From the UHGV virus genome UHGV-1394707: a stretch of 32,637 bases of DNA; one strand, given 5' to 3'. A program made the translations under genes and the position numbers. Shown here piece after piece: positions 686 through 3,682 of the stretch. The DNA comes from a virus. The stretch's first letter is position 1. Each line of letters starts with the position of its first letter. Below the pieces are notes generated by a model, which saw only the letters and a program-made list of their open reading frames with translations, did not search any database and was not told the origin of the DNA.

Positions 686-1294
686 TTATACGGCTTTTTT
701 TACATCTTGTGGTTCTTGTGAAGGAGCTACAAGACCTTCCTGTTCATAAATACCATACTTTGACAAAATCTCTTTACGAGTATCTGTTGGTAATGATTCA
801 AGCATTTTGGCTGTTTGTAAGGTTTGTTGCGAAATACCTTGCAAATTAGCCTGGATGGAATCATCGGAAGAAAAAATCTCAGGCATAAGAGCTTCAAATC
901 CTTTCTTTCTGAACAACTCAATCGCAGAATGCAGTTCCTTGTCCTCTAACAATTCGACAATTGCGATCAGTTTAGTTTTCAATGTGCTGCGGTCAGGTTG
1001 AGGATTTTTATTCTCTTGAGTATTTTTATGCTCAACCATTGGCATGCTCTGACTTTGGATAAACCACTCTATTGGACGCCCTGTTGCGTAGGCTATTTGT
1101 GCTAATCGATCTAAAGACGGGTATGTCTTGCCAGACAGGTAGTTTCTGATAACCCCATCAGAGAGTCCGCACTTAGCTGCAAACGCCCGGCTTGATTCTC
1201 CATTCATTGCCTCTTCAAGGCGTTCCTTGAAACGCATTATTTCAGATGGCATAAAAATGCGCTCTGCATTTTTGCTTTCTTTTTCACCTGTCAT
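686..1294 (-). CDS. c: Prophage repressor (positional equivalent of Mu c) with XRE-type HTH N-terminal domain and Mu-c-like C-terminal region
   Basis: Divergent from ner across an operator region. N-terminus ..SRAFAAKCGLSDGVIRNYLSGKTYPSLDRLAQIAYATGRPIEWF looks like a Cro/C1 HTH; C-terminus ..KEILSKYGIYEQEGLVAPSQEPQDVKKAV resembles the Mu c tail as recalled. Start taken at MTGEKESKN (ATG at 1294, 202 aa); the ORF-track start at 1345 has no RBS. Confidence 0.75.
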   Translation of the reverse strand: MTGEKESKNAERIFMPSEIMRFKERLEEAMNGESSRAFAAKCGLSDGVIRNYLSGKTYPSLDRLAQIAYATGRPIEWFIQSQSMPMVEHKNTQENKNPQPDRSTLKTKLIAIVELLEDKELHSAIELFRKKGFEALMPEIFSSDDSIQANLQGISQQTLQTAKMLESLPTDTRKEILSKYGIYEQEGLVAPSQEPQDVKKAV

Positions 1295-1463
1295 GCTCAA
1301 TCTCTCTGTTATATAAAGAATTTTACAGAATGCTTTGATTTGCATTGGTTAAAATAAAAATGCGCATAGCTCTTGAAATGCGCATTTTTCTGCGCTATCG
1401 TTTTTCCCGATAGCGGTAGCCGGTATCAGTTACCGAAAACGTTAAGAAAGTAAGGATCGCAGA
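1295..1463. promoter_or_regulatory. Operator / divergent early promoter region between repressor and ner
   Basis: 169-bp AT-rich gap between divergent genes; two copies of palindrome ATGCGCAT (~1360-1367, ~1378-1385); inverted repeat GCGCTATCG-N7-CGATAGCG (~1392-1415); CGGTA-N5-TACCG (~1422-1436). Confidence 0.6.
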
Positions 1464-1691
1464 ATGTCAGCAAAAAACCAAGACTGGCACGCAGAGCAGA
1501 TAAAGGCTGCTGTTCGTATGAAGGGGAAGACACTATCTCAATTATCCAGAGAGGCAGGCTTAAAGCCTGACACTATGCGTAACGTATTTCGCTGCCATAT
1601 ACCACGATACGAAGCAATCATTGCTAGATATTTGGATATGGAACCAGCCCAGATTTGGCCTTCTCGGTATATGGAGAAAACATCATGTTAA
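1464..1691 (+). CDS. ner: Ner-like DNA-binding early regulator
   Basis: 75 aa, first gene of the early operon, RBS AAGGA; ..[32 protein letters not shown] resembles Mu Ner (..WPSRY tail) as recalled. Confidence 0.8.
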
Positions 1692-3682
1692 CCCATTGGG
1701 TAACAGCGCAAGAATGCGTAGGAATGTCATGCTTTCCTAAACATGAGGTGAGTATTCGCCGCAATCTTGAAAAGCTTGCAGCCAATCATCCAGAACTACG
1801 TCGCAAGCGTACGGGTTCAAAGGCTTTGGAATTTCATATATCAGTTCTGCCAGCGGCAGCACGTGCTGAGTTGTTATTAAAATCTGAGCAAATAGAAACA
1901 AGCCAGGGGTATTTTGAAATCGCCCGCCCCACGCTGGAAGCCCATGATTATGATCGTGAGGTGCTGTGGAGCAAATGGGATAACGCCAGCGATTCCCAGC
2001 GCAGACTTGCTGAAAAATGGTTGCCTGCGGTTCAGGCTGCAGACGAAATGCTGAACCAGGGGATTTCAACAAAAACGGCTTTTGCGACCGTTGCAGGGCA
2101 TTACCAGGTCAGCGCATCCACTTTGCGGGACAAGTATTACCAGGTACAGAAGTTTGCGAAGCCTGACTGGGCGGCTGCGCTTGTTGATGGACGTGGTGCA
2201 TCCCGTCGCAACGTTCACAAAAGTGAATTTGACGAGGATGCCTGGCAGTTTCTGATTGCAGATTATCTGCGACCGGAAAAACCCGCCTTCCGCAAATGTT
2301 ATGAGCGTCTGGAACTGGCAGCCCGCGAGCATGGCTGGAGTATTCCCTCCCGTGCCACGGCCTTTCGCCGGATTCAGCAACTGGACGAGGCAATGGTTGT
2401 TGCCTGTCGTGAAGGTGAACATGCACTGATGCATCTGATACCGGCACAGCAGCGAACTGTGGAACACCTGGACGCCATGCAGTGGATCAACGGCGACGGT
2501 TATCTGCATAACGTCTTTGTACGCTGGTTTAACGGTGATGTGATCCGTCCGAAAACATGGTTCTGGCAGGATGTGAAAACCCGAAAAATTCTGGGCTGGC
2601 GCTGCGATGTGAGCGAGAACATTGATTCAATTCGCCTCTCGTTCATGGATGTTGTGACTCGCTACGGTATCCCGGAGGATTTTCACATCACCATTGATAA
2701 CACCCGTGGTGCTGCGAATAAATGGCTGACGGGAGGCGCGCCCAATCGCTACCGCTTTAAGGTAAAAGAGGACGATCCAAAAGGACTGTTTTTACTGATG
2801 GGGGCGAAAATGCACTGGACAAGCGTTGTTGCCGGTAAAGGCTGGGGCCAGGCAAAACCTGTTGAACGTGCTTTCGGTGTTGGTGGGCTTGAGGAATACG
2901 TTGATAAGCATCCGGCACTGGCTGGCGCATATACGGGGCCTAATCCGCAGGCAAAACCTGATAACTATGGCGACCGCGCTGTTGATGCAGAGCTGTTTCT
3001 GAAAACCCTTGCCGAAGGTGTGGCGATGTTCAATGCCAGAACAGGCCGTGAAACAGAAATGTGCGGAGGCAAACTTTCGTTTGATGACGTTTTTGAGCGT
3101 GAATACGCCAGAACGATTGTGCGTAAGCCTACCGAAGAGCAAAAACGGATGCTGTTACTGCCTGCCGAGGCAGTGAACGTTTCACGTAAAGGCGAGTTCG
3201 CGCTTAAAGTTGGTGGCTCCCTTAAAGGTGCGAAAAACGTTTATTACAACATGGCGTTAATGAATGCCGGAGTGAAAAAAGTTGTGGTCAGATTTGATCC
3301 ACAGCAGTTACACAGCACGGTTTATTGCTACACCCTGGACGGTCGGTTTATCTGTGAAGCGGAATGTCTGGCACCTGTTGCGTTTAATGATGCTGCGGCA
3401 GGCCGTGAATATCGCCGCCGCCAGAAACAACTGAAATCTGCGACGAAAGCAGCAATTAAGGCACAGAAACAAATGGATGCACTGGAAGTGGCAGAGCTGC
3501 TGCCGCAGATAGCCGAACCTGAAGCACCAGAATCACGAATTGTCGGCATTTTCCGGCCTTCCGGTAATACGGAACGAGTGAAGAATCAGGAGCGTGATGA
3601 TGAATACGAAACTGAGCGTGATGAATATCTGAATCATTCGCTGGATATTCTGGAACAGAACAGACGTAAAAAAGCCATTTAA
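1685..3682 (+). CDS. A: DDE transposase, MuA type
   Basis: 665 aa from ATG 1685 (overlaps ner stop, ATGTTAA); the ORF-track frame opens at TTG 1655. Body matches Mu A as recalled; candidate DDE residues in WINGDGY / TIDNTRG / VERAFG; MuA-type N-terminal winged-helix region. Confidence 0.92.

Follow-up and report, generated by a model that had tools for sequence, protein, structure and literature searches.

The region examined here lies near the left end of a viral DNA of 32,637 nucleotides, UHGV virus genome UHGV-1394707 (this whole stretch is referred to as the window), and comprises the 169 bp between a repressor gene and a ner gene together with the repressor gene's first codons. The DNA is that of a Mu-family prophage that has inserted into ybdK: positions 1-347 are Escherichia coli ybdK (carboxylate-amine ligase), a Mu-type left end begins at 348, and the genes then follow in the order repressor, ner, A, B, with the repressor divergent from ner-A-B. 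The original prediction, made from the letters of the window, had placed candidate operators for the repressor and/or Ner between these two genes; the analysis supports reading the stretch as the operator/promoter region of a Mu-type immunity module, flanked by ner and a divergent gene for an XRE repressor. The analysis described below suggests, with a probability of roughly two in three (0.68) for the explanation as a whole, that positions 1250-1440 are the lysis/lysogeny switch of the prophage, of a third immunity type unlike those of Mu and D108, in which putative repressor operators and a putative Ner operator are arranged in a Mu-like layout. The features that enter into this argument are as follows.

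686-1294, minus strand: repressor gene, 202 aa, protein accession WP_000145456; start as in the PGAP annotation of the E. coli genomes SE11 and N1286.
1253-1273, no strand: putative distal compact operator, a 21-bp palindrome AAAAATGC-gctct-GCATTTTT, perfect 8-5-8, in repressor codons 8-14.
1356-1366, plus strand: left arm of the putative promoter-bracketing operator, AAAAATGCGCA; holds most of the first ATGCGCAT; position kept in all lineages.
1373-1378, plus strand: predicted -35 hexamer TTGAAA of the early promoter Pe, from a sigma-70-like scan.
1379-1389, plus strand: right arm of the putative promoter-bracketing operator, TGCGCATTTTT; fills the -35/-10 spacer and holds most of the second ATGCGCAT; best-conserved arm (alignment A2).
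1396-1401, plus strand: predicted Pe -10 hexamer TATCGT, from the sigma-70-like scan and a promoter scan across lineages.
1414-1435, no strand: ner-proximal palindrome CGGTAGCCG-gtat-CAGTTACCG, 22 bp, 7 of 9 positions complementary, with CGGTA-N5-TACCG as its inner part; probable Ner operator.
1464-1691, plus strand: ner homologue, 75 aa, protein accession WP_001274794; Pfam HTH_35 at 1.9e-25, PDB matches to EnrR and Mu Ner.
1685-1891, plus strand: coding region of the transposase N-terminal domain (I-alpha), the part of gene A in the swapped cassette; Pfam HTH_Tnp_Mu_1.

The nucleotide alignment with Mu is interrupted over this region. Positions 348-805 are 95-97% identical to Mu 1-458, and the window from 1892 onward is 98% identical to Mu from 1529 onward; the intervening ~1.1 kb (806-1891) is without nucleotide similarity to Mu. 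Judged by this alignment, the immunity cassette at 806-1891 has been replaced relative to Mu. It contains the N-terminal three-quarters of the repressor gene, the intergenic region, ner and the first ~69 transposase codons. The left mosaic junction falls at ~775-805 inside the repressor gene, of which the last ~40 residues, VKKAV tail included, are Mu-like (the 3' end of the gene is 95-97% identical to Mu DNA); the right junction is at ~1892, past about codon 69 of the transposase gene, which starts at 1685 and so overlaps ner in the window. A cassette of the same type sets D108 apart from Mu. Among 5,426 complete E. coli genomes the window's cassette is carried by two, SE11 and N1286, at two further insertion sites and in prophages >98% identical to the window; a scan of genome contigs returned near-identical prophages only, and no close copy was found among the phage records searched. 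One of the two near-identical prophages interrupts an rpn-like gene and the other a PTS IIC gene beside agaD, sites other than ybdK, so the element must have moved recently.

The protein encoded by the repressor gene appears to be a composite. Residues 35-78 match Pfam HTH_3 (XRE; PF01381; E = 3.1e-7, 30.8 bits against a cut-off of 23), and residues 101-198 match phrog_7148, which places the C-terminal half in the Mu c repressor family; phrog_3037 is matched over the full length. In the alignment a low-complexity linker of ~25 residues joins the DNA-binding domain to the Mu-c-like helical domain. A PDB sequence search with the repressor returned marginal HigA-type and other helix-turn-helix matches (E >0.2), with no solved operator complex for comparison. 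In the PDB, Ner matches EnrR (7e-16) and Mu Ner (4.5e-13). The transposase I-alpha domain is of the winged-helix family HTH_Tnp_Mu_1, and its nearest match in the phage collection is just 46% identical. It matches the N-terminus of phrog_7148, the Mu-type repressor family, at 3e-10, whereas the window repressor matches that family in its C-terminal half only, and a BLASTP comparison of the repressor N-terminal domain with I-alpha found no similarity. In Mu and D108 the N-termini of repressor and transposase are reportedly alike. Since the two domains of the window share no BLASTP similarity and belong to different Pfam families, this rule, as far as sequence comparison can tell, fails in this prophage.

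All the repeats that had been proposed between the two genes are present at, or within one base of, the coordinates given for them. The self-complementary octamer ATGCGCAT occurs at 1360-1367 and 1378-1385 and nowhere else in 32.6 kb, and both copies are part of a perfect 12-nt inverted repeat, AAAAATGCGCAT-N10-ATGCGCATTTTT (1356-1389). To assess significance, the 169-bp intergenic region was shuffled 5000 times with its dinucleotide composition preserved. One shuffle contained an inverted repeat of 12 nt or more, and 56 (1.1%) contained a self-complementary octamer occurring twice; with a loop of at most 10, an 8-nt inverted repeat arose in 249 (5%) and a 5-nt one in 4512 (90%). From the window sequence alone, the ATGCGCAT-containing repeat is the only one clearly beyond chance.

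The wider significance of these elements was examined by comparison. The sample consisted of 15 lineages including the window (the others being L006, L008, L010, L011, L016, L013, L015, L014, Kp4866-3, L021, L022, L024, L026 and L027, with L022 counted together with its near-duplicate L025), drawn from contigs found by a repressor protein search, the unannotated Klebsiella phage Kp4866-3 and IMG/VR loci. The protein search returned XRE-type relatives at 33-90% identity, and also Mu-type repressors matching in the C-terminal half only. The order repressor, ner, A is found in all 15 lineages, I-alpha of the window subtype was found in 13 of the 14 relatives tested (none was detected in L026), and the related prophages occupy many different chromosomal sites, in line with transposition.

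In this comparison the octamers prove to be the inner ends of a 34-bp inverted repeat, AAAAATGCGCA-N12-TGCGCATTTTT (1356-1389), placed around the predicted Pe -35. An inverted repeat of an A-tract and a short core is present at the homologous place in 15 of 15 lineages, and its arms bracket the -35 wherever a promoter was called; the sequence flanking the arms is otherwise unconserved. The spacing between the 8-mer arms is 16-20 bp, and in 12 of the 15 lineages it is 17-18 bp. Depending on the lineage, the core reads TGCGCA, TTCGCA, TACGCA, ACCGA, ACACGA or ATCC, with the change made symmetrically in both arms. The arms were distributed as follows.

Arm AAAAATGCGCA: window, L006, L008, L010 and L021.
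Arm AAAA(A/G)TTCGCA: L011, L016 and L013.
Arm ATAA(A/G)TACGC: L014.
Arm AAAAAACCG: Kp4866-3, L027 and L026.
Arm AAAAACACGA: L022.
Arm AAAAATCC: L024.

In SE11 the left octamer reads ATGCGCAC, and the 11-nt arms are still perfectly complementary; the cores of most other lineages (TTCGCA, ACCGA, ACACGA, ATCC) are not self-complementary. The self-complementarity of ATGCGCAT therefore seems incidental, and across the alignments the conserved unit is the 11-nt arm, an A-tract plus core (AAAAATGCGCA), inverted around the -35. The earlier suggestion that short palindromic half-sites would serve as XRE sites thus holds in so far as repressor sites are best sought in the ATGCGCAT-containing repeats, but it is the arm, not the octamer, that relatives keep. 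The sequence TGCGC occurs four times in 140 bp (1258-1262, 1361-1365, 1379-1383 and 1391-1395); the fourth, just upstream of the -10, is partly kept in relatives (TGCGCT, TTCGCT, ATGCGA) and could be an extra weak half-site.

The second putative operator, which lies inside the repressor coding sequence, had been overlooked by the original prediction. A homologous distal palindrome with the lineage's own core was found in 14 of the 15 lineages. At the core positions the lineages encode different residues (including Ala/Arg, Ser/Arg, Pro/Gly, Arg/Arg and His/Arg) and keep the complementarity, which points to selection on the DNA at this palindrome, not on the peptide. In L021 the in-gene half-site is duplicated in tandem (AAAAATGCGGA twice), giving a repeated peptide, KNADDIM-KNADHIF, in which operator DNA is being translated. 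The centre-to-centre spacing between the distal palindrome and the Pe-bracketing repeat is 109.5 bp in the window, 108.5-110.5 bp in 13 of the 15 lineages and 100.0 bp in L022. The 82 bp between the clusters are not conserved between lineages, the distal palindrome lies anywhere from 16.5 to 52.5 bp away from the repressor ATG, and the length of the intergenic region and that of the repressor N-terminal extension are mutually compensating. The rigidity of the 110-bp spacing suggests that the two clusters act together. In vivo loop-formation studies have given a helical repeat near 11 bp, and at ~11 bp per turn spacings of 110 and 100 bp would correspond to 10 and 9 turns, consistent with phased cooperation of the clusters.

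The assignment of the early promoter rests on a sigma-70-like scan, in which TTGAAA-17-TATCGT at 1373-1401 was the sole match within 600-1800. A promoter-like match begins 86-92 nt before the ner ATG in 12 of the 14 lineages scanned, and the match at 1373-1401 is accordingly predicted to be Pe. Between it and ner lies the 22-bp palindrome at 1414-1435. Its inner part, CGGTA-N5-TACCG, had been put forward as a candidate operator for the repressor or Ner and was found at 1421-1425 and 1431-1435, one base from the figures originally given. A 5-nt repeat appears in 90% of shuffles, and the full pattern CGGTAGCCG-N4-CGGCTACCG (22 bp, at most 3 mismatches allowed) has a single window match, with 2 mismatches, and none in 100 shuffles; it therefore takes comparison to give the element significance. 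Of the 10 lineages scanned, 9 have the end of the palindrome 28 nt ahead of the ner ATG, and L014 has it at 29 nt; the palindrome is perfect or near-perfect in L010, L014 and L013, and four of its pairs show compensatory changes. The palindromes just upstream of ner in D108 and Mu are the Ner operators of those phages, and the 22-bp palindrome is probably the Ner operator of this prophage; the CGGTA element belongs to the best candidate for a Ner site.

The remaining repeat of the original prediction fared less well. The element CGCTATCG-N7-CGATAGCG is present at 1393-1400 and 1408-1415 with an 8-bp stem, but the ninth base (G1392/G1416) is unpaired and the repeat is not conserved. It is absent from all relatives except the near-identical prophages, and at its place the other lineages have CGCTATTG...CGTAATCG or similar; its left arm is the -10 region of the predicted promoter. 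The proposal that it is an operator is consequently not upheld, and the repeat is probably fortuitous. The comparison with the operator regions of related Mu-like prophages, which had been suggested as a check, thus favours the ATGCGCAT-containing arms and the CGGTA palindrome, which are conserved, and not CGCTATCG/CGATAGCG.

Which protein reads which site was approached through the covariation of the arm cores with the recognition helix of the XRE domain. Helices beginning SDG or SEG occur with TGCGCA, SDT with TTCGCA (L011, L016, L013), SEA with TACGC or ACACGA, and SDK with ATCC; two further SDT lineages, L027 and Kp4866-3, carry ACCGA and not TTCGCA, and with few related lineages the covariation is supportive only. 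The most informative lineages are those in which the two kinds of site part company. In L011 and L016 Ner is 84% identical to that of the window and the ner-proximal palindrome is window-like, while the core (TTCGCA) and the helix start (SDT, against SDG in the window) differ. L021 has the window's exact arm AAAAATGCGCA with an SEG helix (DNA-binding domain 57%, Ner 41% and I-alpha 40% identical) and a different ner-proximal palindrome. These patterns imply that the arms follow the repressor and the ner-proximal palindrome follows Ner; the arm cores would then track the recognition helix of the XRE repressor, not Ner. A site in the promoter spacer is also the classic position for a repressor. 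In L021 and in L024 (both IMG/VR loci) the same XRE DNA-binding domain and operator architecture are accompanied by a C-terminal domain that, on inspection of the translation by eye, looks like an S24 peptidase (lambda CI/LexA-like) and replaces the Mu-c-like one; should this be correct, the DNA-binding/operator module has been exchanged independently of the induction/oligomerisation domain.

The favoured explanation for these observations is a switch of the following kind. The repressor, with its XRE domain, linker and Mu-c-like C-terminal domain, would recognise half-sites made of an A-tract and a short core (AAAAATGCGCA) in two clusters. At the first of these, the right arm lies in the -35/-10 spacer, so that bound repressor would exclude RNA polymerase from Pe. 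The other, ~110 bp upstream, would be the compact 21-bp palindrome in the first codons of the repressor's own gene, and repressor oligomers could bridge the two, much as between O1 and O2 of Mu, if the AT-rich DNA separating them were bent. Ner would reduce early transcription by binding the 22-bp palindrome, which spans approximately +6 to +27 of the transcript from Pe. Directly observed are the anatomy of the region, how well it is conserved, the matched changes in paired arms and the resemblance to promoters; the pairing of proteins with sites, the looping and any part played as an enhancer are inferred.

Several observations weigh against this explanation. Half-site 8-mers are 13 bp apart, centre to centre, in the distal palindrome and 26 bp apart at Pe; the former spacing would fit one helix-turn-helix dimer and the latter would not, and one binding geometry cannot serve both. 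It may be speculated that the tethered domains of a repressor oligomer span both arrangements by means of the linker. L014 has no clear distal site. Identities of the repressor domain, Ner and I-alpha are intercorrelated across the lineages (Spearman 0.58-0.78); since all three proteins co-vary with phylogeny, site assignment rests on a few informative lineages (L011, L021), and assignment by correlating identity matrices was dropped for the same reason. L013 and L015 have near-identical Ner recognition helices and different palindrome half-sites. A minus-strand scan of 14 lineages for the repressor promoter (Pc) found no consistently placed promoter-like match. Finally, an IHF-like sequence lies between the clusters, with one mismatch to its reference sequence, and some relatives have similar matches (perfect in L013), but none was found in L006, L008 or L015; as an IHF site it is weak and not conserved.

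A different role for the A-tract/core sites was also considered, namely that they are also, or instead, the transposition enhancer, with I-alpha binding both clusters and the repressor competing there, so that Mu logic would operate with an unrelated repressor fold. The I-alpha coding segment was swapped with the operators as one cassette (806-1891), and because the segment travels with the cassette its target is probably inside it. The window subtype of I-alpha also accompanies these sites in every relative tested apart from L026. Measured from the left end of the prophage, the rigidly spaced clusters occupy 906-926 and 1009-1042 bp. This agrees with a published account of the Mu enhancer, in which two groups of MuA sites, split by an IHF site, lie ~1 kb from the left end and overlap O1-O3 (PMC3145075). 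Against this, two folds without detectable homology would need to read one sequence, and because the repressor and I-alpha are unlike in fold the shared-site logic of Mu and D108 cannot be assumed. A search for a separate conserved motif for I-alpha found none, the inter-cluster spacer being unconserved, and nothing distinguishes I-alpha from the repressor as the reader of the arms. An enhancer role for these sites is therefore a tentative and less favoured possibility. The model of the original prediction, in which each self-complementary ATGCGCAT octamer is by itself the operator for one XRE dimer, draws on the presence of two exact copies, the sole ones in the window, and on the rarity of such a pair in shuffles. 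It would put the half-sites at a distance of 4 bp, which leaves too little room for a helix-turn-helix dimer, and it is at odds with the broken octamer of SE11, where the arm is unaffected, and with the homologous cores, most of which are not self-complementary; it is considered highly improbable.

Instead of a Ner site, the ner-proximal palindrome could be a site for the transposase I-alpha domain, or it could form a stem-loop in the early mRNA, within the 5' leader. It lies inside the predicted transcript, RNAalifold returned a 9-pair stem with compensatory changes, and some of its mismatches are G-T and would be tolerated by RNA (L006). The hairpin of the window RNA has only 5 pairs, however, the leader folds no better than shuffles (z = -0.97), mismatches across the lineages are mostly not G-U by manual count, and there is no Rfam match; the position and form of the palindrome agree with those just upstream of ner in D108 and Mu. 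A leader structure or I-alpha site is thus improbable, and a Ner operator remains the preferred assignment. Likewise, CGCTATCG-N7-CGATAGCG might be an additional operator confined to this lineage, such as a second site for Ner that overlaps the -10. Its perfect 8-bp repeat does overlap that hexamer, and CGATAG resembles both the CGATAA half-sites of the ner-proximal palindromes in L022, L026, L027 and Kp4866-3 and the CTATAG core bound by EnrR. The arms face the opposite way from the CGATAA palindromes, however, the repeat is not conserved in relatives of <98% identity, and 5% of shuffles yield one like it, so that this role, too, is judged quite improbable.

Three further elements were located in or beside the intergenic region.

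1328-1340, minus strand: IHF-like sequence AATCAAAGCATTC, one mismatch to WATCARNNNNTTR, between the operator clusters.
1393-1415, no strand: 8-bp inverted repeat CGCTATCG-N7-CGATAGCG, lineage-specific, shared only by SE11 and N1286 (>98% identical).
1451-1466, plus strand: TAAGGATCGCAGAATG, the ner start with its conserved ribosome-binding region; almost without variation in alignment A2.

A terminator-like hairpin at 1380-1395 was rejected, having 5 pairs, a position inside the promoter spacer and no conservation. The Rfam search gave nothing significant; its single match, to the Salmonella sRNA STnc40 at 1317-1390 (22 bits against a gathering score of 45, E = 0.61), was treated as chance. 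In L010 an extra open reading frame of 153 aa lies on the opposite strand (2642-3103) between ner and the transposase gene.

In the textbook example, provided by Mu and D108, a single region is both operator and transposition enhancer, and homologous N-termini of repressor and transposase bind the same sites. The prophage described here, with a Mu backbone and layout and an unrelated XRE domain, offers a natural test of whether the coupling of operator and enhancer needs homologous proteins, and would separate the ancestry of the repressor from that of the transposase within this paradigm. If the Mu layout persists with an XRE repressor, it may be, and this is suggested with reserve, that two unrelated folds share the A-tract/core sites or that the enhancer has been separated from the operator. 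With shared sites, repressor and transposase would still compete at the operator/enhancer; with a separated enhancer, repression of transcription and repression of transpososome assembly would be uncoupled. Either outcome would measure how far the Mu principle that operator equals enhancer needs common ancestry of both proteins. The comparison also yields ~6 operator specificities with matching repressor variants, and the sharply conserved 110-bp spacing. A literature search found no paper characterising an XRE-type repressor in a Mu-family phage, although the searches were not aimed at that type.

In Mu as in the window, the region is found ~0.9-1.0 kb from the left end, where the repressor gene and ner diverge, and contains two repeat clusters ~105-110 bp apart, the first overlapping the 5' coding end of the repressor gene and the second in the Pe spacer, and a palindrome just downstream of Pe and before ner (CTAAGT-N6-ACTTAG in Mu); outside the cassette the prophage backbone is 95-98% identical. 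In the Mu sequence, CTTTT-type repeats occur at ~891-926, in the first codons of the 196-aa c reading frame, and at ~1003-1023, from the Pe spacer on, with a perfect IHF consensus between the two clusters. The half-sites of the window are instead AAAAATGCGCA in inverted pairs, and its repressor domain is XRE-type (HTH_3), whereas that of Mu is a winged helix common to MuA I-alpha. D108 likewise differs from Mu by exchange of the N-terminal part of the repressor, the operators, ner and the first ~70 codons of gene A, and immediately before ner it has an inverted repeat, CCGTGAGCTAC-N8-GTAGCTCACGG, whose end is 24 nt from the ATG (28 nt in the window). Its control-region sequences are unrelated to those of the window, and its repressor is reportedly Mu-type and similar to the N-terminus of its transposase, a similarity that the window lacks.

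With the XRE-type Cro and CI proteins of lambda, 434 and P22 the window shares the helix-turn-helix superfamily, palindromic operators overlapping a promoter and a specificity that appears to track the recognition helix. Unlike their 14-18-bp sites, its promoter operator would be a palindrome split around the -35, with 26 bp between the half-site centres, its second putative operator is in the repressor coding sequence at a fixed 110 bp, and its oligomerisation domain is Mu-c-like. The window Ner matches both EnrR and Mu Ner (HTH_35). EnrR, the closest Ner homologue of solved structure, binds a short, compact palindrome as two closely packed monomers (PMC9023278); its consensus is AT-rich (AATAAATNATTTATT), in contrast to the GC-rich palindrome of the window (CGGTAGCCG), the candidate Ner site. 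It is common in phages for an operator to separate a repressor gene from a divergent cro/ner-like gene; what sets this region apart is the Mu layout with an XRE repressor.

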